Of a stretch of DNA of 64,000 nt, positions 3,973 through 54,485 are shown one piece after another (position 1 is the first letter of the stretch; every line of letters begins with the position of its first letter). Source of the stretch: an uncultured Bacilli bacterium (GTDB taxonomy: Bacteria > Bacillota_I > Bacilli_A > RF39 > UBA660); NCBI GenBank assembly GCA_910580185.1, contig CAJTWC010000003.1:34304-98303 (forward strand), written 5' to 3'. The translations under genes and the position numbers were made by a program. The notes below the pieces were generated by a model. It worked only from the letters and a program-made list of their open reading frames with translations, did not search any database and had not been told where the DNA came from.

Positions 3973-4497
3973 ATGAAAACAATGGAAGAACATAAAAAAG
4001 AAAAATCAGAATTAATGAGAGAAAAAATAATAAATGAGATAAATGATTGTGATAATGATGAGCAAAAAGCAATGTTATTAGATAAAGCCGTAGCTTCTGA
4101 TGACCCAGTTTTAATTAGAGAGGTTTTAACAAAAACCAAATTATCAGAAACAGAGAATGATAAAGTTTTAAAAGCATTTCTTTCAAAAAACGACAGTGAG
4201 TATTTTACACAACAAATAGTTTACTTATATTTTAAGGATGCGGAATCTTTAGCTGCTTCATTTGGAAGTTCAAATAATTTTAGAGATTATGTATTATCTG
4301 ATACGTATCTTGATACAGAAAATATTCCTAAAGACTTTTTGGATAGTGTTGAGGCTATTGCTAAAAGTGAATCAAATAGTATGATGATAATAACAAGAAC
4401 AATGATAGAACAACATATACTTCCACATATAAACGAAGAAAAAATTCCAGTAGTTAATCTTCACTATAATTCAAATAAATCATATAGAAGTAGGTAA
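3973..4497 (+). CDS. hypothetical acidic protein
   Basis: GGGAGG RBS 9 nt upstream of the ATG at 3973 (the ORF track begins at a TTG at 3967); no recognisable motifs. Confidence 0.5.
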   Translation: MKTMEEHKKEKSELMREKIINEINDCDNDEQKAMLLDKAVASDDPVLIREVLTKTKLSETENDKVLKAFLSKNDSEYFTQQIVYLYFKDAESLAASFGSSNNFRDYVLSDTYLDTENIPKDFLDSVEAIAKSESNSMMIITRTMIEQHILPHINEEKIPVVNLHYNSNKSYRSR

Positions 4498-4558
4498 AAA
4501 AATCAAGGCTAGTAATAGCTTTGATTTTTTGCTATAATAACGTTATGAGGGTGGTTTT

Positions 4559-5530
4559 ATGGTGAATTATTTTAAGATGAGAAAAGAAGCAATCGATAAT
4601 ATAAAAGATGCCATAAACAATTTAAGTGGTGAAGGCGTTATTAATAAAAGATTAACCTATAATAGATTTTTTTATCCAAGAAACTATATAAATAAATTAC
4701 TTACTGAAATAGAAGATTATAAACATGGCATAGAATATACATCGTTTAATGGTAATGAAAAAAATAAAAGAATAATCGGATTTGGTTTTAGTCAAATGAA
4801 AAAACCATTAAATGCATTTATTATAAATGATATTCCTGATTTTGATAATACCATTTTGATAACTGGAGTAATGCACGGATTTGAAGGTGCTTTTTCACAT
4901 GATGGGAAGTTAATATATGATACCTTAAATGAAACTGCATATTATTATTCTAATAATAATGATATTTTGAATAAAACAAGAATTATAATAGTTCCATACT
5001 GTAATCCTGATGGTTTGTTTGATGGTAAATCAGATAAAGGCTTTGGTAGAAAAACTTCAAATAATACTGATATGAATAGGGATTTTGGACAATTTAACGC
5101 TCGTGAAACAGTCGAAATATCTAATCTCATGTTAAAGTATAAACCTAATATTTATATTGACGTGCATGGATGGTTAAATGCTTTATATGGTGATGATGAA
5201 ATATTAAAACCTTTTTATAATAATTGCCTAATAGATAGAAAATATCCTAACCAGTTTGGTCACGGGAAAGGATATGCTATATCTTATGCAAAAAATAATT
5301 TTAAAGCCAAATGTGCCTTAGTGGAGTTTAATAGTCCTGATGAAATATCACCGCAAAAAATGGTCATGGCATTAAATGAGTTACTTGGCTTGGATTCTAA
5401 ATACAGTTTCATAGATGAACAAACAATGAAAATAACTAAAGGATATTGTGATATGATAAGAGCTAGTAAAGATTTAGCCAAAACTTTACTTAGAAGAAAT
5501 GGAGGATTAAATGACAAAAATAAAAACTAA
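4559..5530 (+). CDS. M14-family zinc carboxypeptidase-like protein (gamma-D-glutamyl-diamino acid endopeptidase / AstE-AspA-like)
   Basis: HxxE zinc motif (MHGFEG), an NPDG motif about 55 aa later, and a second His (VHGW), all spaced as in M14 peptidases; GAGGGTGG RBS. Confidence 0.45.
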   Translation: MVNYFKMRKEAIDNIKDAINNLSGEGVINKRLTYNRFFYPRNYINKLLTEIEDYKHGIEYTSFNGNEKNKRIIGFGFSQMKKPLNAFIINDIPDFDNTILITGVMHGFEGAFSHDGKLIYDTLNETAYYYSNNNDILNKTRIIIVPYCNPDGLFDGKSDKGFGRKTSNNTDMNRDFGQFNARETVEISNLMLKYKPNIYIDVHGWLNALYGDDEILKPFYNNCLIDRKYPNQFGHGKGYAISYAKNNFKAKCALVEFNSPDEISPQKMVMALNELLGLDSKYSFIDEQTMKITKGYCDMIRASKDLAKTLLRRNGGLNDKNKN

Positions 5531-27583: not shown

Positions 27584-28939
27584 ATGATAACTAAACCAAA
27601 AGGAACAAAAGATATTTATGGGGTAGAAGCTAAAAGATGGCAGTACGTATCTAAGGTAATAGACGAGGTAATGGAAAAGTATAATTATAACTTTATACGT
27701 GTTCCAGTATTTGAAGCAAGCGAATTATTTCATAGAGGAGTTGGAGAAACAACTGATATAGTAACAAAAGAAACTTATGATTTTACTGATCGTGGTGGTC
27801 GATGCATGACTCTTAGACCAGAAGGTACTGCGGGAGTTGCTAGATGTTTCATTGAAAATAAAATGTATGGTGATAATAACCAGCCAATAAAACTTTATTA
27901 TAATTGTCCGATGTATCGATATGAAAGACCACAAGCAGGAAGATATAGAGAACTTACTCAATTTGGTTATGAACTTATTGGAAGTGATGATCCACTAGCA
28001 GATGCTGAAGTAATAAGCCTTGCCGTTAACATATATAAAATACTTGGTTTAAAGGGAATTAAAGTTAATATTAACTCATTAGGGGATGCTGAATCTAGAA
28101 ATAACTATAGAGAAGCTTTAATTAATCACTTTAAACCACATATAGATGAGTTATGCTCTGATTGCAAAGAAAGATTAGAGAAAAACCCTTTAAGAATACT
28201 TGATTGTAAAGTTGATGCTGATAAAGAAGTTATGAAGACGGCTCCTAAAACAATAGATTACCTAAATAAAGAATCTAAAGAAAGATTTGAGAAAGTAAAA
28301 GAGTATTTAGAAGTTATGGGCGTTGAATACATAGTTGATCCATCAGTAGTTAGGGGTCTTGATTATTATAATCATACCGTGTTTGAAGTAGAAGCTGATA
28401 TTGAAGGATTTGGTGCTCAAAACGTTATTGGTGGTGGAGGCCGTTATAATGGCATGATAGAGCAGTTAGGCGGGCCTAGTACTCCAGCGATTGGTTTTGC
28501 AGCAGGCTTTGATAGACTAATGCTTGCTTTAGAGTATGAAAAGGTAAATATACCGGTAAATGAAAGCGTAGATTTGTTCTTACTATACGTAAATGATGAT
28601 GAGAAAAAATACGCTGCATACTTAACTAATGAACTTAGAATGAATGGTTTTGTTGTAGAAACCGATTATTTAAATAGAAGCTTAAAAGCAGGATTTAAAC
28701 AAGCCGATAGGTTAAATAGTAAATTCACTATCGTACTTAATAGTGAAATGTTAGAAAATAACGAAGTCAAAATTAAAAATAATAAAACTAAAGAAGAAGA
28801 AACTATATCAATAGATGCACTAATTTATTATTTAGATGAAAATATAATAGAAGATGAAAATTGTGGATGCTCGCATGATGATCATGAATGTGGTTGTGGT
28901 GATTCATGCAAGTGTCACAACAAGGATAATAATGAATAA
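27584..28939 (+). CDS. hisS: histidine--tRNA ligase with an unusual Cys/His-rich C-terminal tail
   Basis: Typical HisS N-terminus MITKPKGTKDIYG and class II motifs; 451 aa; C-terminus ENCGCSHDDHECGCGDSCKCH. Confidence 0.95.
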   Translation: MITKPKGTKDIYGVEAKRWQYVSKVIDEVMEKYNYNFIRVPVFEASELFHRGVGETTDIVTKETYDFTDRGGRCMTLRPEGTAGVARCFIENKMYGDNNQPIKLYYNCPMYRYERPQAGRYRELTQFGYELIGSDDPLADAEVISLAVNIYKILGLKGIKVNINSLGDAESRNNYREALINHFKPHIDELCSDCKERLEKNPLRILDCKVDADKEVMKTAPKTIDYLNKESKERFEKVKEYLEVMGVEYIVDPSVVRGLDYYNHTVFEVEADIEGFGAQNVIGGGGRYNGMIEQLGGPSTPAIGFAAGFDRLMLALEYEKVNIPVNESVDLFLLYVNDDEKKYAAYLTNELRMNGFVVETDYLNRSLKAGFKQADRLNSKFTIVLNSEMLENNEVKIKNNKTKEEETISIDALIYYLDENIIEDENCGCSHDDHECGCGDSCKCHNKDNNE

Positions 28940-29495
28940 TTTCGAAATAAAAGAGCTTATAAGACAAAAATTTAATGCTATATCAGATCCAGTAGTTGCT
29001 AAAAACTATGATGGTTTTATTGATCAAGATGGATACTTTTATGCATCTGCCCTTAAGTATCGACATGAACCAAGTCATGCTGATTTAGCCCTTGATATAT
29101 TAACTTACTATGATATCATAGTAAATGATGAAAAAGGTGGAATCTTTAGCAAGGTAAAAGAATTCATGTTTTCATATGTAAAAGATGATTATGAAAGAAA
29201 AAAATTGGCGCATTTAAAAGCTCACGTTAATCCAACTAAAGAATTAATTGAAAAATTAAAATTTATGTATTATAGTCATTCTCAAAAAGCCAACAGAAGG
29301 CCTATTATAGAAATAAATGATATGGGAATAGTAAGTAGAGAACAAAAAAATATGTTGATAAGTATTTTACAATTAAATAATGAGTTATCTTTTTTACCAG
29401 ATGATTTAATAGGCGCTAAAAAAGAAGAAATGCACCAAAGATATGTTGATAACTATATTATAAAAAATATGAATAAGGAGAATATAAACAAATGA
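28932..29495 (+). CDS. hypothetical protein inserted between hisS and aspS
   Basis: The ATG overlaps the hisS stop (ATGAATAA); 187 aa; no known motifs. Confidence 0.45.
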   Translation: MNNFEIKELIRQKFNAISDPVVAKNYDGFIDQDGYFYASALKYRHEPSHADLALDILTYYDIIVNDEKGGIFSKVKEFMFSYVKDDYERKKLAHLKAHVNPTKELIEKLKFMYYSHSQKANRRPIIEINDMGIVSREQKNMLISILQLNNELSFLPDDLIGAKKEEMHQRYVDNYIIKNMNKENINK

Positions 29496-30793
29496 TTAAT
29501 TATAAAGAATGTATAAATAAAAAAATTACAATATCTGGCTTTGCTGAAAAGGTTAGAAATCTTCAATGGGTACAATTTATAGTACTTAGAAATGAAGGTC
29601 AAAGAATTCAAGTCACTATTGAAAAGTCTGATGAAAAAAATAAAGAAATGGTTGAAATTGTAGATAAGTTAACCAACGAGTCAACCATTACGGTAACTGG
29701 AACAATAAAGGAAAATGAAAAAGTTAAGATGGGCGGTATGGAGCTAATCCCAGAATCTATTACCGTAACTAGCTTATCAGCGCCTGAACTTCCTATTAAC
29801 ATAACTAATAAGGATGCAGCAGCAATTGATACTAGAATGGATAATAGATTTATTGACCTTAGAAACGATGTTAATTTTCATATATTTAAAATACAAACTG
29901 AATTCGTAAGAGCGATGAGACAGTATTTATATCAAGAAGATTTCACTGAAATTCATACTCCAAAATTAATTGGAGCAGCATCAGAATCAGGTAGTGAAGT
30001 ATTCGAAGTTGATTACTTTGGAGATAAAGCATATCTTGCTCAATCACCACAATTTTATAAACAAATGGCAATAGCAGCAGGATATGAAAGGGTATTTGAA
30101 GTAGCGCCAGCATTTAGAGCAGAAAATTCAAACACTAATAGACACGCAACAGAATTCACTTCATTTGACTTAGAATTTGCTAACATAAGATCATATGAGG
30201 ATGTTATGGCCGTCGAAGAAGACCTTTTAGTAGAAGGCCTTACTGCAGTTAAAGAAAAATATGGAGATTTAATAAAAGAATTATATGGCGTTGACGTAGT
30301 AGTTCCAACTAGGCCATTCCCTAGAATAGACTTACAAGATTTATATAAAGAATTAAGTGAAAGATATGGTTATAAAGTACCCGATCATGATATTGGTGAT
30401 ATGAATGCCGAAGCAGAAAAATTAACTAGTCGTTATGCGATGGACGTATATGGTCATGAATTTATCTTTGTAACTGGTTTTAGTAAAGCAAAAAGACCAT
30501 TCTACCACATGAGAAAAGATGGTATTCCTCAAGGTTATGACCTTATCTGGAAAGGTACTGAAATAACAACTGGGGCACAAAGAGAACATAGATACGATGT
30601 GTTAGAAGCTCAAGCAAACGAAAAAGGTTTAGGAGAGGATATTAAATTTTATAAAGACTTCTTTAAATATGGATGTCCACCACACGGAGGCTTTGCGCTT
30701 GGAATTGATAGAATGACAATGTTACTTTTAGGATTACCATCATTAAAAGAAACAATGTTCTTATTTAGAGGGCCAAACAGAATTACACCTTAA
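29492..30793 (+). CDS. aspS: aspartate--tRNA ligase, archaeal/type-2 (short, about 433 aa)
   Basis: Class IIb motifs (FRAENSNTNRHATEF; GGFALGIDRMTMLLLGL); C-terminal ...FRGPNRITP ending typical of AspRS2; much shorter than the roughly 590-aa bacterial AspS. Confidence 0.8.
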   Translation: MINYKECINKKITISGFAEKVRNLQWVQFIVLRNEGQRIQVTIEKSDEKNKEMVEIVDKLTNESTITVTGTIKENEKVKMGGMELIPESITVTSLSAPELPINITNKDAAAIDTRMDNRFIDLRNDVNFHIFKIQTEFVRAMRQYLYQEDFTEIHTPKLIGAASESGSEVFEVDYFGDKAYLAQSPQFYKQMAIAAGYERVFEVAPAFRAENSNTNRHATEFTSFDLEFANIRSYEDVMAVEEDLLVEGLTAVKEKYGDLIKELYGVDVVVPTRPFPRIDLQDLYKELSERYGYKVPDHDIGDMNAEAEKLTSRYAMDVYGHEFIFVTGFSKAKRPFYHMRKDGIPQGYDLIWKGTEITTGAQREHRYDVLEAQANEKGLGEDIKFYKDFFKYGCPPHGGFALGIDRMTMLLLGLPSLKETMFLFRGPNRITP

Positions 30794-30817: not shown

Positions 30818-31384
30818 ATGGAAAATAAAAATAATAATTATGTAAAAGAAGCATTTGATAAAATTGAACATAGAAAAATTTTACTTAATAATAGAGCAAT
30901 TGAAGCAGATAATTATATAAATAAATTAAATAATTTCATTTTGTATAATAATATGGAAATAAGCTCAATAGTATGTGAAGAAATGCAGTATTACGTAGGA
31001 AATTTAATATGTAATATTTTATTAATTGAAAATGCTATATTAGCTAATATAGTTACAGCTAATGGCTCAGATCCTAATATAATATTTATGTCTTTAAGTA
31101 TTTGTGAGTCTATAAGATTAGCAGATAATAATAATTTTTCTAGAAAATTCATACCTTCTCTTAAGGATTTGTTAAGTAATATATTTGAATTAAAAAAAAT
31201 GAATCGTATTGCACGTAGGCAAATTAATAATAAAGATATTGAGTTAGAAAAATATAGAAAAGAATGTGAATTAAAGGCCCACGAAATAATAAACAACATA
31301 TTTTCAGAAGAAAATATGTATTACGACGGAAACGTCATAAATGAAGAAATAGATAAAGCTAAATCAATAGGTAATAATAATTAA
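30818..31384 (+). CDS. hypothetical protein
   Basis: GGAGGG RBS; 188 aa. Confidence 0.45.
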   Translation: MENKNNNYVKEAFDKIEHRKILLNNRAIEADNYINKLNNFILYNNMEISSIVCEEMQYYVGNLICNILLIENAILANIVTANGSDPNIIFMSLSICESIRLADNNNFSRKFIPSLKDLLSNIFELKKMNRIARRQINNKDIELEKYRKECELKAHEIINNIFSEENMYYDGNVINEEIDKAKSIGNNN

Positions 31385-31525
31385 AATTACAAGTAAGTAT
31401 GAAATATCAAAAAATAATATAGATTAGTATATTATTTTTTTATTTACAAGATATAACCATTTATTATTGTTTTTTAATTTAAAATAATATATAATTATCT
31501 TAGAATGAATAGGAGTGGGATTATG

Positions 31526-32173
31526 AAAGAAGAAATGCTTAGTTTAGAAGCTGATTTTGCAAACAATGAATATTTTGGCACCAACGTATGGACTGATGAA
31601 AAATACCGTGTATTAAGCGGTAATGTTCCTGTCCTTCTTTCAGCACCCCACACTGTTAATCAAATAAGAGGCGATGATGTTAGGGATGCCGAGAAATTTA
31701 CTGGAGCACTAGTAAGATATTTATCTTCTGCAACCAATTCATACGCAATATTTCAAATTTTTACTCACTCTGATCCAAATACTGATAAAGAAAATGATTA
31801 TAAAAATGGTATTATAAACATCATAAATGGTTTTAATATAAAATTATTACTTGATATACATTCTAGTACATTTAAAGATGATACTGATATTGACATTGTT
31901 ACAAACAATAGAGAATCATTAAGGGGAATGGATACTTTAGTTGATAAATTAAAAGAGTTAGGTATAAAATATGATGTTAAATTTGATGAAATGAACGAAC
32001 CAAATAAACAAAAAGAAAACGAAATAATATATGCATCATCATTACTATGTAACATCCCATCTATAAGATTAGTTATTAATAATAAAAGATTAAACATAGA
32101 AGAAGATGATTCATCAATTAAAAAAATAGAAGAATTATTAGAGGAGTTTATATCGTATTTTAATTATTCATAG
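31526..32173 (+). CDS. hypothetical protein
   Basis: AGGAGTGGG RBS upstream of the ATG at 31526; the ORF track begins at 31505. Confidence 0.45.
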   Translation, partial: KEEMLSLEADFANNEYFGTNVWTDEKYRVLSGNVPVLLSAPHTVNQIRGDDVRDAEKFTGALVRYLSSATNSYAIFQIFTHSDPNTDKENDYKNGIINIINGFNIKLLLDIHSSTFKDDTDIDIVTNNRESLRGMDTLVDKLKELGIKYDVKFDEMNEPNKQKENEIIYASSLLCNIPSIRLVINNKRLNIEEDDSSIKKIEELLEEFISYFNYS

Positions 32174-32194
32174 TGTAAAGTTTTGTCTTTACTA

Positions 32195-32224
32195 TTGAAT
32201 AAAATATTACATAAGTGATATAAT
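32195..32224 (+). promoter_or_regulatory. strong sigma70-like promoter (-35 TTGAAT, 18-nt spacer, extended -10 TGaTATAAT)
   Basis: Read directly; the transcription start is predicted near G32231. Confidence 0.5.
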
Positions 32225-32230
32225 ATAAAT

Positions 32231-32409
32231 GCCTAAAGGTATCGGGCGCTAGCACATTTAACCCGCTAAGATTTAATAGGGAATCAGAATCAATAGTGGT
32301 GTTCATGCTTAAATTTATTTAAGAAGTCTAAAACTATTGTGGGATGCCCACCTGCGAGAATTGCAGGTTTATCTTGTTAGCAAACGACCCTTTGGGTTCT
32401 TTTTTTTTA
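32231..32409 (+). ncRNA. candidate stand-alone structured small RNA of about 180 nt, identity undetermined
   Basis: The locally GC-richer segment lies between a strong promoter and an intrinsic terminator (ACGACCC-UUU-GGGUUCU followed by U9). It contains adjacent hairpins GUGGG-AUGC-CCCAC and CCUGC-GAGAAUU-GCAGG. There is no long ORF, and the downstream gene has its own TTGACG/TAACAT promoter. Confidence 0.35.
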
Positions 32410-32500
32410 CAAAAAAACGTTTGTTCATAATTTTTTAATAAATGATTTGACGAAGAAGCTCTTTTTTGTTAACATAATTTTTATAAAAAGGAGAAATTTT

Positions 32501-33136
32501 ATGGCCATATATGAAAAATTAAGTCATAATCAAAACGTAGTTTATCATAAAACTTCAAAAACTTCTGATAAATACAATAGTTATTTAACTCATGAGTGGC
32601 TATTTATTAATTTGTTGTACAAGGAAGAAATAAAAAAAGATCTTGAGCTTGCTAAAAAGTTTTTAATGTATATGATACAATATCATCCAGAGTATAAATG
32701 GACTAGCTTAGATTTAAACAATCCCGTTGGAACAGTTATATTAGAAAGCGATATTTCAGATAAAACTTTTAGTGGAATTAACATATTTAAAGACGAGGAA
32801 GAAGCTAAAACGAAAGCAATGGAATACGGGGAAAATGTCACAGACTTTTTAATACGTTATAGAGGTTATTCTTTAATAAAATGCCAAAATGAAAACATTA
32901 TAATTACAGCCCAAAGTAATTGTGATAAAATATTTGAAGAAGAATTATATAATGGATATTCACTCCAAAGGAAAGCAAAACTCCGTTATGTAAAAACAGA
33001 TGATATAATTAGAAAAACGTATCCTATGATTGATGGATATTTTACTCATTTACCGGTTCTTCCAACAAAAGAAATTGGAATTGAGATAGATGAAATGATT
33101 GAAAATACTGATGGTGTTTTTGTAAAAGTAAAATAA
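32501..33136 (+). CDS. hypothetical protein
   Basis: AAAGGAG RBS upstream of the ATG at 32501 (the ORF-track start at 32447 is unlikely). Confidence 0.45.
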   Translation: MAIYEKLSHNQNVVYHKTSKTSDKYNSYLTHEWLFINLLYKEEIKKDLELAKKFLMYMIQYHPEYKWTSLDLNNPVGTVILESDISDKTFSGINIFKDEEEAKTKAMEYGENVTDFLIRYRGYSLIKCQNENIIITAQSNCDKIFEEELYNGYSLQRKAKLRYVKTDDIIRKTYPMIDGYFTHLPVLPTKEIGIEIDEMIENTDGVFVKVK

Positions 33137-33166: not shown

Positions 33167-33844
33167 ATGGAACAAAGTAGAACAGAAAAAATTATAGGAA
33201 TAGATAATATAAATAAATTAAATAACACTAGCGTGTTATTAGTTGGTATAGGTGGGGTAGGAGGATCTGCTCTTGAAATGCTTGTTAGGTCAGGCGTAAA
33301 TAACATTACAATAGTTGATTTTGATAAGTTTGAAAAAAGCAATTTAAATAGACAAATACTTAGTTTAGAAACTAATATAAATAAATATAAAGTAGATATT
33401 GCAAAAGAAAGGGTATTTTTGATAAATCCAAAATGCAACGTAATTACTTACAATAAGAAAGTTGATAAACATTTTATAAATATATTAGATAATAATTATG
33501 ATTATATTATTGATGCCTGTGATGATGTAAATGCAAAGGTAATACTTGTGAAATATGCAATTAAAAAGGGCATCAAAATAATATCATGTTGTGGTACCGG
33601 TAATAAAATTGATCCTAGTAAATTATATATTACTAACATTTGGAAAACAGAGTATGATCCGCTAGCAAAAAAACTTAGATCAGAATTAAAAAAAGAAAAA
33701 ATAAATTATAAATTACCGGTTGTTACCTCAAGTGAGCAACCTTTAATAAAAACTGGGGGTTTTGTTGGTTCTATGGCAATGGTTCCCAATAGTGCCGGAA
33801 TCCTTCTTGCAAGTTATGTAATAAATGATGTAATTGATAAATAA
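33167..33844 (+). CDS. tcdA: ThiF/MoeB-family E1-like protein, likely tRNA threonylcarbamoyladenosine dehydratase TcdA
   Basis: Rossmann motif LLVGIGGVGGSALEMLVRSGV...IVDFDKFEKSNLNRQ; 225 aa. Confidence 0.7.
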   Translation: MEQSRTEKIIGIDNINKLNNTSVLLVGIGGVGGSALEMLVRSGVNNITIVDFDKFEKSNLNRQILSLETNINKYKVDIAKERVFLINPKCNVITYNKKVDKHFINILDNNYDYIIDACDDVNAKVILVKYAIKKGIKIISCCGTGNKIDPSKLYITNIWKTEYDPLAKKLRSELKKEKINYKLPVVTSSEQPLIKTGGFVGSMAMVPNSAGILLASYVINDVIDK

Positions 33845-33907
33845 ATTTTATTGTAATTTATAAAATAAAATGTTACAATACCTTATGTAAAATAGGAGTT
33901 GAATAAA

Positions 33908-35260
33908 ATGAAAAAAAGAAATTTATTTATAACATTTTTGCTGGTTTTCTTTGCATCACTTACGACGATTAATGCGGAAGAAAAACTAGATTGTACTAAA
34001 ACCGTTGAAGTAGGTAATACTGTTACATGTACATTTACACTTGGTGAAGAAACTAAAATGATAGAAACTGATTCAGAATGTCTTAAAATCGAGTCTGTAA
34101 GCGGAAATGGTAATACGCAGTTGAATGATTATCAGGCAATTTTTCAATCATCCGGAAAAATAAAATTCACTGCGAAAAAAAGTGGAAATGCCCACGTATA
34201 TGTTAGTTCGGAAGATGGCATCTTTGGCTATGAGGAATTAGAACAAATAGTTAAAATAACTGAAAAAACTACTACTACAAAAACCACTACGACAACAACT
34301 ACTAAAGCAAAATCTGATAATAATTATTTATCATCAATAACAATAGATGGTATAGAAATCGAAGATTTTTCAAAAAATACTACAAAGTATTTCGTTGATG
34401 TTGAAAATGACACTAAGAAAGTAACAATTAAAGCACAAGCCGAAGATAGTACCGCAACAATATCAATTGATGGGCCTAAAACACTTAACGTTGGTGATAA
34501 TGAATATACTATATCAGTTACTTCTGAAAGCGATATCACAAAATATTATAAAATAATCATTACTAGAGCTGATGTAGAAGAATCTTCTAGTACTGAAATA
34601 AAAAGTATAAAAATAAGAGGCTACAAATTAAATTTTGATAAAACGTCTAAAACATTTCATTTAAATATTAAGCCTGAAGATAGTCAGTTAGACATAACCA
34701 TAACTTTAAAAGATAAAAAGGCAAATTATGAAATAGAAAATAATGATAATTTAAAAGATGGTAGTGTAATTAAAATAATTGTTACTGCGGAAGATGATAC
34801 TACTGATACATATAGAATAATAATTTCTAAAAAAAGTAATAATGTTATGCCAATCATTATTGGATCACTAATAATAGTAGTTGCAATCATAGTTATAGTT
34901 TTAGTAATTATCAATAAAAAAAGAAAAAATTATAAAGATAATAAAAAAGCTAATAATGTTGATGAAAAAAAAGATAGCAAAGATAAAATTGAAAAAGAAA
35001 ACATTATTGATGAGAAAACAATAGAAATGCCTGCGATAAATGAACCGGAGCAAACTTCTGAAACTAGTTTTGATGAAGAAGATTATAGTATACCTTATGA
35101 TAATGATGAGGAAGAAGAAACTAGAATACTTTCATACGCAGAAAAAAAAGAATTAGAAAAAGCTAATAAAGAAGAAAATGAAAAAACTAGTATAGAAATT
35201 GATAAAGCGCTAGAAAATATGCTTAGTTTTGAATATGAATCTGATGAAGATGATGAATAA
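33908..35260 (+). CDS. surface-anchored protein with signal peptide, Thr-rich linker, cadherin-like beta-sandwich repeats, C-terminal TM and acidic tail
   Basis: Signal peptide MKKRNLFITFLLVFFASLTTINA; TTTTKTTTTTTTK linker; repeated YxSxITIDG..YxIxV motifs; TM IIIGSLIIVVAIIVIVLVII. Confidence 0.5.
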   Translation: MKKRNLFITFLLVFFASLTTINAEEKLDCTKTVEVGNTVTCTFTLGEETKMIETDSECLKIESVSGNGNTQLNDYQAIFQSSGKIKFTAKKSGNAHVYVSSEDGIFGYEELEQIVKITEKTTTTKTTTTTTTKAKSDNNYLSSITIDGIEIEDFSKNTTKYFVDVENDTKKVTIKAQAEDSTATISIDGPKTLNVGDNEYTISVTSESDITKYYKIIITRADVEESSSTEIKSIKIRGYKLNFDKTSKTFHLNIKPEDSQLDITITLKDKKANYEIENNDNLKDGSVIKIIVTAEDDTTDTYRIIISKKSNNVMPIIIGSLIIVVAIIVIVLVIINKKRKNYKDNKKANNVDEKKDSKDKIEKENIIDEKTIEMPAINEPEQTSETSFDEEDYSIPYDNDEEEETRILSYAEKKELEKANKEENEKTSIEIDKALENMLSFEYESDEDDE

Positions 35261-35265
35261 TTAAT

Positions 35266-35297
35266 AAAGAGCAAGAAATTAATTTTCCTTGCTCTTT
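35266..35297. terminator. bidirectional terminator between the convergent surface-protein and rarA genes
   Basis: Perfect 10-bp stem AAAGAGCAAG / CTTGCTCTTT. Confidence 0.6.
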
Positions 35298-36496
35298 ATG
35301 TTTTCTATATTATCAATTGTCATCTTAAATACCTTTTCATATTTATTATTCTTTGGTTTATAATAAACTCTGTTTTTTAAATTATCAGGTAAGTATTGTT
35401 GTACGACATAGCTGCCAGGATAATCATGAGGATACTTATATCCAAAGGCCTGAGCGTTAATATGAGATGGTACATCTCCAATATTTCCATTTTCGATATC
35501 TTTCATTGCTAAGTCAATAGCTGCTTCAGCACTATTAGATTTAGGAGATAATGCTAATTCTATAACCGTTTTAGCAAGTGGTATTCTAGCTTCTGGTAAC
35601 CCAACCCTTTCAGATGCATTAATCGCTGCTTCAACTTTTACGCCCATACTAGGATTTGCAAGCCCAATATCTTCATATGCAATAACCGTCATCCTTCTAT
35701 ATATGCTATCTAAATCTCCCGAAGAAATTAATCTTGCCAAATAATGCAGTGAGGCATTAACATCTGATCCTCTAATTGACTTTTGAAAAGCGGATAAAAC
35801 GTCATAATGACCTGATTCATCTTCATCCATTGGATTAGATGATTTAGTATTTACACCTTTTACAACATCACAATCAACTTTTTTATCAGATGTACTATAA
35901 TAGGCTACTTCTAGTAAGTTTATTGCAAATCTAAAATCTCCATTTGCCATAGTGGAAATTAAATTTAAGGTTTTAGTATCTATTTTTATATTTTCTAATG
36001 CTTTAGAAGCTTTTTTTAGTCCCTTTACAATATCTTCTTTGGTTAAAGCCTTAAGTTCAAATATCTGACATCTACTTCTTATCGCCGGATTTATTTTATG
36101 ATAGGGATTCGATGTAGTAAGACCAATTAATGTTATCTTACCATTTTCAAGCATAGGAAGTAATAAATCTTGCTTATCTTTATTAAGCCTATGAATTTCA
36201 TCTACCACAAGAACTATGTTTCCATAAATTTTTGTTTCCTCAAATACTATTTCAAAGTCTTTCTTATTGTTAACAACCGCGTTTAAAAACCTATGTTTAA
36301 TGCCTAACTCTTCGGTAATTGCATTTGCAATAGACGTTTTGCCAATTCCAGGAGGCCCAAATAATATCATTGAAAATATTTTTTTATTCTTAACTAAATT
36401 AGACAATATTTTATCTTTACCAATTAAATGTTCCTGGCCAATTACATCATTTAACTTTTTAGGTCTTAAATAATTTGCTAAAGGCTCATTTTTCAT
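35279..36496 (-). CDS. rarA: replication-associated recombination protein A (RarA/MgsA AAA+ ATPase)
   Basis: Walker A FGPPGIGKTS, Walker B VVDEIHRLNK, MgsA C-terminal domain; GGTGA RBS upstream of the ATG at 36496. Confidence 0.9.
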   Translation of the reverse strand: MKNEPLANYLRPKKLNDVIGQEHLIGKDKILSNLVKNKKIFSMILFGPPGIGKTSIANAITEELGIKHRFLNAVVNNKKDFEIVFEETKIYGNIVLVVDEIHRLNKDKQDLLLPMLENGKITLIGLTTSNPYHKINPAIRSRCQIFELKALTKEDIVKGLKKASKALENIKIDTKTLNLISTMANGDFRFAINLLEVAYYSTSDKKVDCDVVKGVNTKSSNPMDEDESGHYDVLSAFQKSIRGSDVNASLHYLARLISSGDLDSIYRRMTVIAYEDIGLANPSMGVKVEAAINASERVGLPEARIPLAKTVIELALSPKSNSAEAAIDLAMKDIENGNIGDVPSHINAQAFGYKYPHDYPGSYVVQQYLPDNLKNRVYYKPKNNKYEKVFKMTIDNIENIKSKEN

Positions 36497-36578
36497 TAAT
36501 ATCACCAATAATAATTATATCACATATTGACAATTAAGTCTTTTGCTGATAATATAATTCTGCAAAAAAGGTGACGAA

Positions 36579-49505: not shown

Positions 49506-50068
49506 TGGAAACAATTGATAGCATAAAAACAAGGTGGAGTAACTATAAATATAAAAATAAAGATATTCCAAAAGATGTTATAGAAGACATATTAAATTGT
49601 GGTAGGCTTGCTCCTTCTGCTAAGAATAGACAACCTTGGTACTTTGTAGTTACAACAGGTAATACAAAGAATGAAATTACAAACATAATGCTTAGTGAAG
49701 TGGGAAGAATCACTGATAAGGATGAAATAAAAAGAATAGGGCATCCTTGTAGTCTTTTATCAACCGCAAGGACAATAAAAAAAGTTCCTGTATTAATTTT
49801 AATATTTAGACCAAATGATAAAGCTTGGGCTAAAGGAGATAGATTATCACTTGGTGCGTGTATAGAAAACATGTGCTTAAAAGCAACTGAGTTAGGTATT
49901 GGTTCTTTATGGATATTAGATACCGTATACGTTGAAAAAGAAATACAAAAAGTTACTAACCATGAAGACATGGAATTAGTGTGTGGTTTATTACTAGGAT
50001 ATCCAGATCAAAAACCCAGAAAAAAGATTAGAAAAAAATTAAAAGATATGATGGAGTGGCAAATATAA
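49505..50068 (+). CDS. nitroreductase family protein
   Basis: RLAPSAKNRQPWYFVV motif; 187 aa. Confidence 0.75.
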   Translation: METIDSIKTRWSNYKYKNKDIPKDVIEDILNCGRLAPSAKNRQPWYFVVTTGNTKNEITNIMLSEVGRITDKDEIKRIGHPCSLLSTARTIKKVPVLILIFRPNDKAWAKGDRLSLGACIENMCLKATELGIGSLWILDTVYVEKEIQKVTNHEDMELVCGLLLGYPDQKPRKKIRKKLKDMMEWQI

Positions 50069-50565
50069 TGTACGAAATAAAAGAAGTAAAACATAGTAAT
50101 AAAGACTTTATAAATTTATGCAAAAAAATAGATGAGTATCAAAACGATTTAATTCCATTAAGAAAAAATTGGGGTTTTTCTTCTCTAGATGAAATAGATG
50201 TTTTAGATAAAATATTATTAATGTATGATAATGAAAAAGCAGTAGCATCAGCTTCTATTAGAAAAGTTGATAATAATACTGCTGAATTATGCTCTATATA
50301 TACAGAAGAAGAATATAGAAATAAAGGAATATGCACTTTACTTATAAATGAGTTAATAAAGTATTTAGCCTCCAATAACTACAAGAAACTTATATTATAT
50401 ACTCTAAAAGGAAGTATACCTGCTATTTCTTTGTATAATAAGTTTGGTTTTGTAAAAATAAATATAGAAGAAAAGAAAGAAGATATGGATCACATGTCTT
50501 ATTTAAATAATGATACGTTAGAAGAAATAGATAAGTATACAGTTTATATGGAAAAGATATTATAG
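50056..50565 (+). CDS. GNAT family N-acetyltransferase
   Basis: Acetyl-CoA binding region RNKGICTLLINELIKY; 169 aa. Confidence 0.7.
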   Translation: MANIMYEIKEVKHSNKDFINLCKKIDEYQNDLIPLRKNWGFSSLDEIDVLDKILLMYDNEKAVASASIRKVDNNTAELCSIYTEEEYRNKGICTLLINELIKYLASNNYKKLILYTLKGSIPAISLYNKFGFVKINIEEKKEDMDHMSYLNNDTLEEIDKYTVYMEKIL

Positions 50566-50608
50566 TTAAAAATATAATGGTCTTTTTTATTTATAATATT
50601 AAAAAGCA

Positions 50609-50637
50609 TTGACAAAACAATAAGAATTTGTTAATAT
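50609..50637 (+). promoter_or_regulatory. near-consensus sigma70 promoter (-35 TTGACA, 17-nt spacer, -10 TAATAT)
   Basis: Read directly; lies upstream of the ORF at 50670. Confidence 0.5.
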
Positions 50638-50669
50638 AACGCCGTTAGGTTACTTAAGAGGGGGATACA

Positions 50670-51071
50670 ATGAAAATATTTAAAAACTTTGAAAATGATG
50701 AAACTAATAAATATATGATTAAAAATTACAATTTAAAAAATGTCAATAAAAAAAAGCTTGCATATTTAATTTTGGTTCCAGTGATTATTTGTGGTAGTAT
50801 TATTGGTACAGCTACCACCGTTAAAGCTTCGCAAATAGAGGATAATTATTATAATAAAAAAGAAACTAGTAGTATAATGTATGTTGATGAAAATACGAAC
50901 AAATTAGCATATCAAACAGATAAAAGTCATAAAGAAAATAATAATCTGCGTTTTATTGATTCTGAAGAGAATAGTGAATTATTAGATTATATTGCGCTTG
51001 GTGTAAGTTGTACAGCATTAGGATTATCAGTAGCCAATTTTGCAAACATACTAAGTAAAAGAAAAAGATAA
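50670..51071 (+). CDS. hypothetical secreted or membrane protein
   Basis: N-terminal TM or signal peptide and a C-terminal hydrophobic segment plus KRKR; AGAGGGGGA RBS. Confidence 0.4.
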   Translation: MKIFKNFENDETNKYMIKNYNLKNVNKKKLAYLILVPVIICGSIIGTATTVKASQIEDNYYNKKETSSIMYVDENTNKLAYQTDKSHKENNNLRFIDSEENSELLDYIALGVSCTALGLSVANFANILSKRKR

Positions 51072-51257
51072 ATAGCTAAACATTTTGGCTATTTTTATTA
51101 TAAAATAATTAAAAAAATGATTTAAGAAAAGATTATGAATAACAATATTATAGATAAAGTTATTAGAAAAAATCATATTAAATTAATAAAAGATAAATTC
51201 AATCAATAAGTCCCCTATTATTTATTAAAATTTAAGTAGGGGAGTTAAGTATAAAAA

Positions 51258-51296
51258 CATAGATGCAACACATATCAATTGCATCTATGTTTTTAT
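51258..51296 (+). terminator. strong intrinsic terminator inside a 670-bp noncoding region
   Basis: 10-bp stem ATAGATGCAA / TTGCATCTAT followed by GTTTTTATT. Confidence 0.55.
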
Positions 51297-51740
51297 TATT
51301 AATTTTCAATATATTGTTTTTATAATAAAACTAGCATGCATTTTAACGCATTTTTTATTTAAAAGATGCATAGTTGTTCATTCGGGTTTGTCTAGTGAAC
51401 TACTATTTTTCGTGATACTTCCCCTACTATGTAATTAAAACATGATAAAAAGGGGAGTAGGAGACTAATACAGCCACTTTTTTTAATAAGAGTGATGATT
51501 TATATATAATTTTTTCAAAACCATTTAAGATAGGTTAAAAATAATTAATAATAATTTTAAAAGATTTATATTTGAGTTTAGTTGCTTATACAGATAACAC
51601 ATATAACACAATCACGAAAGTGGATTTAATAGATTAGTAAATAAACATAATAAAAAGATAACTATAAAATAGCTATCTTAAATTCAAAATTAAAATGTTA
51701 ACATAATATGTATTATACGAACTAAAATATAGTAGTGTAC

Positions 51741-52508
51741 TTAAACATCGCGAGACTGTATTTCAGCTATCTTAGCTAATACTTCCGATGCATTTGTTTG
51801 ATTGATTTCTGTGTATCCTAACTCATGTAATGCTTGTATCTTAGCTGAATTTATTTCTTGAGTTCTAGAAAGTTTTTCTTCGTTCTTGTGTTCTATTTCT
51901 GCTACAAACTTCTTATGTTGTTCGGCAAGTTTTGTTTTTGATGCGCCACCATTACGGTATAAAGTCATTGCTGAATGCATAATACTTTCAAAAATAAATT
52001 GTTCTTCCTCATTAAATGTATATTCTTCTGGATCAACAAAGCCTAATAGTTTATCAATATATCCCATCATATATTTTAACTCTTTAACATTTTCTAATCC
52101 TTGGACAAAATTAAGTAAATATTTATATGTTAAATATGCGTCATTAGAATTTTCTATAAAACGTTCTTTTATTAAGAAAATAATGTCATTTAATAATTCT
52201 TGTTCTCTTGGCTTTAATTCTTTAAATTCTATTGATTCTGAATGAGTTACACTTATATTAGATGCGTCACCATTTAATACCATATCAACCTTATTTATAA
52301 ATTCAGCATCTACTTTTATATTATCTATATCAGTAGCCTCTTTAATATCCAATAAATTAAATAATTTCATTTTTTTATCTTTTGGCCATCTAGAAATATC
52401 ATTCATTTCTAAATAATTATAAATCATTTGGCGAGATACACCTAAATATTTTGCAAGTTTAACTTTAGAAATCCCTACCTCTTGTAAAATTTCGTTAAGT
52501 TTATCCAT
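51741..52508 (-). CDS. putative DNA-binding protein with N-terminal HTH
   Basis: N-terminus VGISKVKLAKYLGVSRQMIYNYL is a helix-turn-helix; GAGGAG RBS. Confidence 0.45.
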   Translation of the reverse strand: MDKLNEILQEVGISKVKLAKYLGVSRQMIYNYLEMNDISRWPKDKKMKLFNLLDIKEATDIDNIKVDAEFINKVDMVLNGDASNISVTHSESIEFKELKPREQELLNDIIFLIKERFIENSNDAYLTYKYLLNFVQGLENVKELKYMMGYIDKLLGFVDPEEYTFNEEEQFIFESIMHSAMTLYRNGGASKTKLAEQHKKFVAEIEHKNEEKLSRTQEINSAKIQALHELGYTEINQTNASEVLAKIAEIQSRDV

Positions 52509-52617
52509 AATTCTCTCTCCTCTACTCTATCTACTCTAACTATAATTTTACACTTTTTTACATTTTTGTCAACTTTTGTACAAAAAAATAATAGAATTAT
52601 AAATTCTATTATTGGTT

Positions 52618-53250
52618 TCATATTAAAAACGTAAATAATTTTAATAATACCGGTGTTATATAAGCATCAACTAATGATATAGTTATAATTAAAATCAATG
52701 ATATTATAAAAGCTAGAAAATATCTACCAATAAAAGTTTTGAAATCTAAACTTTTTTTAGTAAGTAAAGATTTTAAAAATTTAATAGATACATATACTGA
52801 GAAAAATGATAAAAATAAATAAATCAGTATAAATGCTACATGGCAAGGAAATATATATAATAATGAACCTAAAATACCTTTTAATGAATATTTATATATT
52901 ATAGTTCCTATTGTAAGACCAGTTGTAAAACCCTTAAAAAATAATATCAGAATAACCGCAAATATACCTATCATAGAAATTCCTAAAATAAAAATTATAG
53001 TAATTTGAATTATATTATTTATCAAAATACTTTCAAATGCACCTAGTCCAAATATACTTTTATCAAGAGTTTTAACACAAGTAAAAAATTCTCCTACTTC
53101 ATCTACTAATATTTTTTTATCAGCATTTCCAATAAAATTTATAAAGAGTGAGCCAAATATTAATCCTACCAAAAATATTATTATATTAAATATTATAATT
53201 TTCTTTTCTTTTTTTAATAGTTCGTTTAAATAGTTTATTAATTTCTTCAT
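52618..53250 (-). CDS. SpoIIM/DUF95-like polytopic membrane protein
   Basis: 210 aa, about 6 TM helices, N-terminal pattern resembling stage II sporulation protein M; AGGGAG RBS. Confidence 0.35.
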   Translation of the reverse strand: MKKLINYLNELLKKEKKIIIFNIIIFLVGLIFGSLFINFIGNADKKILVDEVGEFFTCVKTLDKSIFGLGAFESILINNIIQITIIFILGISMIGIFAVILILFFKGFTTGLTIGTIIYKYSLKGILGSLLYIFPCHVAFILIYLFLSFFSVYVSIKFLKSLLTKKSLDFKTFIGRYFLAFIISLILIITISLVDAYITPVLLKLFTFLI

Positions 53251-53345
53251 TTTAATCTCCCTAATAAACTATATTAATAATATTTAATATTATGACTTTT
53301 ATTTTAATGATTTTTATATTATAATTATCCTAAGAGGTGAATAAA

Positions 53346-53489
53346 TTGGCTAAAAACATTAGTGAAAACAAAAAGAAAAAGAAAAAATTCAAAATAAATT
53401 GGAGTAAAGTTTTAGTTTGGTTTGCGCTAATCGCAATGGTCGGATCAGCTATAATAGCAATACTATCCCCTATCATGTATAATAACTAG
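53346..53489 (+). CDS. 47-aa small membrane protein (TTG start), hypothetical
   Basis: AGAGGTG RBS 6 nt upstream of the TTG; poly-Lys N-terminus followed by one TM helix; not in the ORF track. Confidence 0.3.
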   Translation: MAKNISENKKKKKKFKINWSKVLVWFALIAMVGSAIIAILSPIMYNN

Positions 53490-53529
53490 AATACTGTCGT
53501 ATTCTTTTTTTTATTAAATATAATTTAGT

Positions 53530-53931
53530 ATGACAAACGAAGAAAAAATAAATAATCAAAAAATAAAATTTTTAGATCTTCAAATGGTAGCAACTATAGG
53601 ATTTATTTTAACTCTTATAATATCTTTTTTACTATCCTATGATAAAAAATTATCTTTAGAAAAAAAAGATAGATTATTCACAGAAGAAAACGCTCAAAAT
53701 TTAGCTCTTTTTCAAACTATCTTAGTATTTGTAATAGCCATATGCTTTTTATATATAAATTATAAACAATATAATATCGCTAAAGAAAATCATGGTAATG
53801 ATGAAAATGACTTTCTTCTTCAAATAGAAACTTCAATATTCGCTATAATATCAGCTATCATTGGATTATATATTGTATTTAAAAATTACCGAAATAAAAA
53901 TCTTAATATATCAGAAACGGAACCGTTTTAA
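53530..53931 (+). CDS. hypothetical membrane protein
   Basis: 3 predicted TM helices. Confidence 0.35.
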   Translation: MTNEEKINNQKIKFLDLQMVATIGFILTLIISFLLSYDKKLSLEKKDRLFTEENAQNLALFQTILVFVIAICFLYINYKQYNIAKENHGNDENDFLLQIETSIFAIISAIIGLYIVFKNYRNKNLNISETEPF

Positions 53932-54485
53932 TTATCATATTTATAATTTAAACTTTTTTCAGCATACTCTAAAGCTTTATCTCTGTCAAAAAAATATTCA
54001 TCAGGAATTATAAAACAGCTAGTTTTACGATAACCATTTGATATTTCAAAAGAAAGTGCAATTCCAATTATTTGTTCATCATTAAGTTTTTTTAAATGCT
54101 TCAATAGTTCTTTATCATAATGTTTAATAATATCAATTTTTAAATTTTCTTCAATGTACACTCTTTTTACAGATGCTTTTAAAGTTTCTAAATAATTATT
54201 ATCTACGTTTACTTTTCTTTTAATTAAATAATAAGTATATGCTTCACAAAAACCATCTATACATAAAAGAAAATTAGTATGACTATTAGGATATGGTAAA
54301 GTTAGATTAATATTATATATTTTATTATTTTTAAAATTTACCATACATATATTCTGATTATTACTTAAATTTCTAACAAACTTAGCTTTATCTTCCATAT
54401 AACTTATAAACTTTTTATCGAAAAAACGTAACTTTTCTAAAAAGGTTATAACCTTTAAATAATAATTTTTAGTTTTTTTATCCAT
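53928..54485 (-). CDS. hypothetical protein
   Basis: AGGTGA RBS upstream of the ATG at 54485; the ORF track begins at a TTG at 54491. Confidence 0.4.
   Translation of the reverse strand: MDKKTKNYYLKVITFLEKLRFFDKKFISYMEDKAKFVRNLSNNQNICMVNFKNNKIYNINLTLPYPNSHTNFLLCIDGFCEAYTYYLIKRKVNVDNNYLETLKASVKRVYIEENLKIDIIKHYDKELLKHLKKLNDEQIIGIALSFEISNGYRKTSCFIIPDEYFFDRDKALEYAEKSLNYKYDN

Follow-up and report, generated by a model that had tools for sequence, protein, structure and literature searches.

6S RNA is a well-known small RNA: by imitating an open promoter, it keeps RNA polymerase sequestered. Among the described systems closest to the locus considered here, the 6S-1 gene of Bacillus subtilis is located between aspS and yrvM, according to the title of Suzuma et al. 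2002, as cited in PMC10578484. In the Lactobacillales, the 6S gene is usually monocistronic with a terminator downstream, and rarA lies near the 6S locus throughout that group; in B. subtilis, too, it is close by, in opposite orientation (PMC8414754). The product RNA (pRNA) associated with these RNAs has recognizable hallmarks, namely an adenine beside the start site, GG at positions 5/6 (or 4/5) and AA at positions 9/10 (PMC8414754). For the Mollicutes, a search of the literature on 6S RNA turned up no item specific to the group.

Against this background, we analyzed a 64,000-nucleotide stretch of DNA (henceforth the window) from an uncultured Bacilli bacterium documented solely by metagenome-assembled genomes. 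In this DNA, an earlier note had pointed to an "orphan", "unidentified" RNA, listing a 6S RNA, a riboswitch or a lineage-specific sRNA as options and proposing an Infernal search against Rfam as a check. That search, run against all 4227 Rfam families, returned a sole above-threshold family in the 64-kb window: RF00013 (6S/SsrS), which matches 32227-32402 on the plus strand with 65.0 bits as against a gathering score of 46.4 (E 1.4e-10) and does so at full length, i.e., across model positions 1-187 of 187. The question is hence settled as 6S/SsrS at 65 bits: the orphan label is wrong because a curated Rfam model matches the RNA above its gathering score, the 6S option stands, and the riboswitch and lineage-specific sRNA options become unneeded. 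With a probability that we put at roughly 95%, the segment 32227-32402 (plus strand) is the organism's 6S RNA (ssrS), an orthologue of B. subtilis 6S-1/bsrA. The ssrS locus thus belongs to an already-known, canonical RNA family, and it is the host lineage that is little studied. The observation is real yet ordinary, since the RNA is the well-known 6S and its neighbourhood is shared with B. subtilis 6S-1. The description of a GC-rich, structured plus-strand RNA of ~180 nt held between a promoter and a terminator proved sound, with a GC content of 39% as against 22-30% in the surrounding window and a minimum free energy of -49.4 kcal/mol (z = -2.8 relative to dinucleotide shuffles). No tRNA or tmRNA was detected in the window. 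The RNA lies among the following genes:

27584-28939, plus strand: hisS
29492-30793, plus strand: aspS (non-discriminating type)
30818-31384, plus strand: ORF of 188 aa, no family match
31505-32173, plus strand: ORF of 222 aa, no family match
32227-32402, plus strand: 6S RNA (ssrS; 6S-1/bsrA-like), given as the extent of the Rfam match
32501-33136, plus strand: ORF of 211 aa, no family match
33167-33844, plus strand: ThiF-family tcdA-like gene
33899-35260, plus strand: gene for a cadherin-like-domain protein of 453 aa (PF12733, beta-sandwich)
35279-36508, minus strand: rarA/mgsA

The order may hence be written as hisS-aspS-(188 aa)-222 aa-6S-(211 aa)-tcdA-cadherin-like-rarA, with rarA reversed, and yrvM of B. 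subtilis is what we take to be this same ThiF-family tcdA gene. Gene order establishes the synteny: the aspS-6S-tcdA arrangement with rarA nearby is found in the window and in the 17 close relatives with flank enough to show tcdA. The flanking ORFs of 188, 222, 211, 213 and 168 aa have no match in NCBIfam, Pfam or PHROGs. Two of them are confined in their distribution, the 188-aa ORF recurring in only one of 20 close RNA-carrying relatives (L023) and the 211-aa ORF likewise in only one of the 20 (L002), which gives the spaces around the 6S gene the look of sites where genes have been inserted in particular lineages. The 222-aa ORF, on the other hand, sits directly upstream of 6S in every close relative, at identities of 63-94%; to our knowledge, the arrangement in B. 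subtilis does not include it.

Several further features of this neighbourhood are recorded in their own right. The gap between hisS and aspS measures ~550 nt (28940-29491) here and in some relatives and ~5 nt in others; it is occupied by an ORF of 213 aa (28854-29495) that overlaps the end of hisS, matches no family and could be either a variable insertion or spurious. At the Rfam threshold, the window (1-64000) contains no T-box leader, not even ahead of hisS-aspS. L025, a relative at greater distance, has a strong T-box (4351-4560, 141 bits) that precedes its aspS by ~1.8 kb; in the lineage of the window, T-box control of the hisS-aspS operon may have been lost, or a divergent leader may be present. 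The cadherin-like protein keeps its position among close relatives at identities of 39-87%, as against 76-93% for rarA, a fast divergence that would fit a surface protein. On a larger scale, the GC skew passes from positive to negative near 52 kb (~50000-54000), at the maximum of the cumulative skew, and this switch could mark a replication terminus or simply a change in gene orientation.

The phyletic spread of the RNA was traced through aspS. The AspS search of one-genome-per-species contigs drew in only MAGs of uncultured gut bacteria under the labels Bacilli, Tenericutes or Mycoplasmatota, along with some obviously mislabelled bins, at identities from 95% down to ~60%; Candidatus Aphodocola, a relative that has a name, is assigned to Bacilli incertae sedis. 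Rfam 6S matches of 65.7-75.9 bits were recovered in eight of the 11 related genomes sampled, in each case on the aspS strand and 0.8-2.6 kb downstream of aspS. A new covariance model, built from these Rfam-found sequences together with that of the window, then yielded 29 copies in 81 sources (the window included), all on the plus strand and downstream of aspS. Wherever the flank downstream of aspS is long enough, close relatives (aspS identity of 78% or more) invariably have the RNA. At aspS loci of lower identity (~60-68%), mostly no 6S was seen within 6 kb, and the aspS-6S synteny is therefore not universal. Of the contigs L001, L004, L021, L022, L026, L044 and L072, several are titled "uncultured Muribaculaceae" (Bacteroidota) and one "Paratractidigestivibacter" (Actinomycetota); all carry Bacilli-type aspS genes that are 59-95% identical, several of them also with the 6S locus, and probably represent mislabelled or contaminated MAG bins.

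The homologous loci establish that the signals bounding the RNA are conserved. These signals are:

32195-32200, plus strand: -35 hexamer TTGAAT of the 6S promoter
32216-32224, plus strand: extended -10 element TGaTATAAT (TG at 32216-32217, TATAAT at 32219-32224)
32386-32398, plus strand: terminator-like hairpin GACCC/GGGUU, GACCCTTTGGGTT, followed by C and nine T to 32408
32399-32408, plus strand: C plus T9 tract, the intrinsic-terminator U-tail, directly after the closing stem

With a spacer of 18 nt between TTGAAT and TATAAT, 32195-32224 forms a near-consensus extended -10 promoter, as had been read from the window. Each of the 29 sequences has a TGnTATAAT-type element directly before the RNA (with one hexamer mismatch in three distant loci), and a TTG(A/T)AT-like -35 hexamer stands at an equal distance upstream in most of the 29 homologous loci. 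A U-tract likewise follows the RNA in 29 of 29 sequences, and terminator-like sites in the 3-kb region number 4 as against 0.5 expected from shuffles. The terminator with its U9 tail, claimed for the 3' end, is thus present at 32386-32408, but its hairpin overlaps the closing stem of the RNA. The local GACCC/GGGUU pairing is 86% paired, three of its pairs showing compensatory change in a few sequences, and its GGG also belongs to the closing stem of the 6S RNA, on the 3' side; on account of this double use, the hairpin is probably not a separate, appended element. The local hairpin and the closing stem probably alternate, or else the closing stem itself is the terminator stem. We infer a primary transcript that probably runs from ~32230-32232 into the U-tract, ending at ~32405-32408, and the conserved promoter and terminator predict that it is discrete, stable and abundant.

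Coding potential was considered and rejected. Three mechanical ORFs overlap the region: 28 aa (ATG, 32344-32430, plus strand), 33 aa (TTG, 32337-32438, plus strand) and 48 aa (32160-32306, minus strand). The assertion that no ORF exceeds a few codons therefore fails to the letter, while its substance, a noncoding RNA, holds: the plus-strand ORFs cross the helix-8 loop, whose length varies by 1-2 nt among relatives, so that no plus-strand reading frame is conserved.

A different kind of dependence on a protein-coding gene would obtain if the RNA were a leader acting in cis, be it a riboswitch, a T-box or an attenuator, whose terminator regulates read-through into the 32501 gene or tcdA. The geometry lends this some plausibility: the RNA is on the strand of the downstream genes, its terminator ends 92 nt before the ATG at 32501, and tcdA starts only ~40-65 nt after the RNA in most relatives. 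In some distant loci, a ribosome-binding site follows almost directly after the U-tract, and some read-through co-transcription is hence possible. However, the next gene is not constant among close relatives: the window and L002 have the 211-aa ORF at this place, the others with enough flank have tcdA, and in the distant loci L061, L063 and L066, tcdA is itself ~0.6-0.95 kb from the RNA. As only one of the 20 close RNA-carrying relatives possesses the 211-aa gene, the RNA is not its leader; moreover, that gene has a promoter-like site of its own at 32447-32475, in keeping with what had been proposed for it. No riboswitch or other leader family reaches the Rfam threshold in the window, the 6S model matches at full length, what is conserved is a rod closed by long-range pairing between the two ends of the RNA rather than a terminator/antiterminator, and the equivalent B. 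subtilis arrangement is that of an established trans-acting 6S RNA. A leader or riboswitch for the 32501 gene was accordingly rejected, and a cis-acting leader in the wider sense appears extremely improbable. The earlier note was right to favor an independent noncoding sRNA, its promoter and U-tract being kept in 29 of 29 sequences.

The 6S RNA at this locus folds, in the RNAalifold consensus, into the rod of its family: a closing stem, a large central bubble extending from the closing stem to H5, an internal arm and an apical hairpin. Its parts are as follows:

32231-32250 (32231-32238, 32242-32245, 32248-32250), plus strand: 5' strand of the closing stem (H1-H3), pairing with 32379-32397
32253-32267, plus strand: predicted pRNA template, on the 5' side of the central bubble, placed by homology
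32279-32349, plus strand: internal arm, comprising H5, H6 and the apical hairpin H7
32279-32285 with 32343-32349, plus strand: H5, 100% paired
32291-32297 with 32333-32339, plus strand: H6, internal stem, seven of seven pairs compensatory
32308-32312 with 32319-32323, plus strand: H7, apical hairpin, four of five pairs compensatory
32350-32356 with 32362-32368, plus strand: H8, hairpin of the 3' bubble strand (ACCUGCG/UGCAGGU)
32379-32397 (32379-32381, 32384-32387, 32390-32397), plus strand: 3' strand of the closing stem, overlapping the hairpin at 32386-32398

Covariation establishes this fold. The search for compensatory changes in related genomes that had been suggested as a check finds them in 31 of 43 base pairs in the 29-sequence alignment A2 (28 loci plus the window), an alignment fitted to the covariance model, by which such pair counts are biased towards the structure. 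Standard pairs nevertheless occupy 94.2% of cells as against 32-43% when the partners are slid by 1-3 columns, the observed values are reached by none of 500 shuffles on any of five measures, and the fold also emerges from a plain MAFFT alignment of nine sequences (A1), where 13 of 43 pairs are compensatory; both this alignment and the slid controls argue for a genuine signal. The closing stem is 97% paired, with all 15 of its pairs varying and 14 of the 15 doing so in compensatory fashion.

The bubble region is less straightforward. H8 is 93.6% paired with two compensatory pairs, and it competes for GGU with an alternative AACC/GGUU helix (32258-32263 with 32366-32371) that is formable in 84% of cells and whose core never varies. 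Nearly all homologues could adopt either pairing. Because the core shared by both pairings is invariant, covariation neither supports nor contradicts a pRNA-driven switch between them. Two adjacent hairpins had been named from the letters of the window, and both can be drawn (32339-32351 and 32350-32368), the second being H8; the first, GUGGG/CCCAC, is not a conserved structure. It shows zero compensatory changes, its 5' arm decays in distant relatives while CCCAC is invariant, and the CCC of the latter pairs at long range with the invariant GGG at 32279-32281 in a helix that is 100% paired. The GUGGG/CCCAC hairpin was consequently rejected as a functional element.

The 5' strand of the bubble bears a predicted pRNA template. 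By analogy with its family, pRNA synthesis is predicted to start opposite U32267 and to give the product 5'-AGCGGGUUAAAUGUG-3', which would begin 5'-AGCGGGUUAAAU and is antisense to 32253-32267. At the level of sequence, 5'-AGCGGGUUAAAUGUG-3' displays all three of the hallmarks, i.e., the adjacent A, GG at 5/6 and AA at 9/10. Across the homologues, the flanking A (A32268 in the window) is present in 28 of 29, the GG at pRNA positions 5/6 in 28 of 29 and the AA at 9/10 in 21 of 29, the lone outlier reflecting a one-column shift in the alignment; within the 21 close homologues, the template block TTTAACCCGCTAA does not vary.

These features also bear on the idea that the locus encodes a lineage-specific base-pairing sRNA, or some other polymerase-associated RNA, that is 6S-like only in shape and performs no promoter mimicry. 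There is a precedent of sorts in Weissella, where non-canonical 6S-like transcripts come from the syntenic locus (PMC8414754), indicating that this position in the genome can hold divergent RNAs. In the present case, however, the RF00013 match is canonical, full length and well above the gathering score, and rod, central bubble, template hallmarks and synteny are all present together. The invariant blocks, moreover, sit in the strands of the bubble, where contacts with the polymerase and use as a template would lead one to expect them. We regard such a merely 6S-shaped RNA as very unlikely.

For the 6S RNA so delineated, a course of action can be sketched, in which polymerase binding, pRNA synthesis, its start site and the ensuing refolding and release are all projected from what is established for the 6S family. 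A strong extended -10 promoter of its own, of the sigma-A type, would drive transcription of the RNA, which would end at the U-tract after the closing stem, and the rod shape of the RNA resembles an open promoter. The RNA would then bind in the active-site cleft of the housekeeping holoenzyme of RNA polymerase, in competition with DNA promoters, such that under nutrient scarcity sigma-A-dependent transcription would be damped. Upon recovery of NTPs, the polymerase would copy the 5' bubble strand from 32267 leftwards into a pRNA of ~14-15 nt. The resulting pRNA-6S duplex is expected to displace the AACC/GGUU pairing, allowing the 3'-bubble hairpin at 32350-32368 to form or extend, and the refolded 6S would release the polymerase. 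The part assigned here to H8 and to AACC/GGUU as a pRNA-driven switch is modelled on the B. subtilis and E. coli 6S RNAs.

Considered as a whole, the locus has little consequence beyond correct annotation, in that an RNA is named and its boundaries and parts are fixed, and it makes no open question newly testable. It does extend the Bacillus aspS-6S-tcdA-rarA arrangement to an uncultured low-GC gut lineage that goes by Bacilli, Tenericutes or Mycoplasmatota labels, and the 29-sequence alignment with its strong covariation could refine 6S models for the clade. Its peculiarities are only mildly unusual: the predicted A-start pRNA, the overlap of closing stem and terminator, and the small ORFs inserted beside the gene in some genomes. 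These might be tied together in a tentative proposal, which we hold to be rather doubtful, whereby a reduced-genome lineage of ~26% GC keeps a single 6S RNA with a closing stem that doubles as the terminator stem and with an A-start pRNA, so that release could be sensitive to ATP rather than GTP, while the flanking spaces may serve as a recurrent insertion site for small genes (188 aa, 211 aa).

The locus can be compared with known 6S RNAs. With E. coli 6S (ssrS), it shares the family and, by analogy, the general mechanism of holoenzyme sequestration and release via pRNA synthesis; in the Rfam alignment, its template start, U then A, falls within one position of the E. coli start. Outside the bubble strands, the sequence similarity to E. 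coli 6S is low. In E. coli, ssrS and ygfA are co-transcribed and the RNA matures from a longer precursor, whereas here the RNA has its own promoter near its 5' end and an intrinsic terminator.

The 6S RNAs of the Lactobacillales resemble it in canonical structure, proximity to rarA, mostly monocistronic organization with a terminator and a conserved pRNA motif, but they lie between rarA and uspA (PMC8414754), while the gene described here has the Bacillus-type placement, flanked by aspS and the 222-aa ORF on one side and tcdA on the other.

The comparison extends to the orthologue, B. subtilis 6S-1 (bsrA/ssrSA). Certain differences set the two apart: the B. subtilis pRNA starts with G, whereas the one predicted here starts with A opposite U, as in E. 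coli and in B. subtilis 6S-2; small ORFs intervene here between aspS and the RNA and, in the genome of the window, also between the RNA and tcdA; and the host is a ~26% GC uncultured gut lineage of Bacilli/"Tenericutes". On the side of likeness, both match RF00013, both have a rod with a central bubble and an apical hairpin, a sigma-A-type promoter and a pRNA (here a predicted one) with GG at 5/6 and AA at 9/10, and in both genomes aspS precedes the RNA, yrvM/tcdA comes after it and rarA is nearby in opposite orientation; their pRNAs, GUUCGGUCAAAACU in B. subtilis and the predicted AGCGGGUUAAAUGU here, are identical at positions 5-7 and 9-11.
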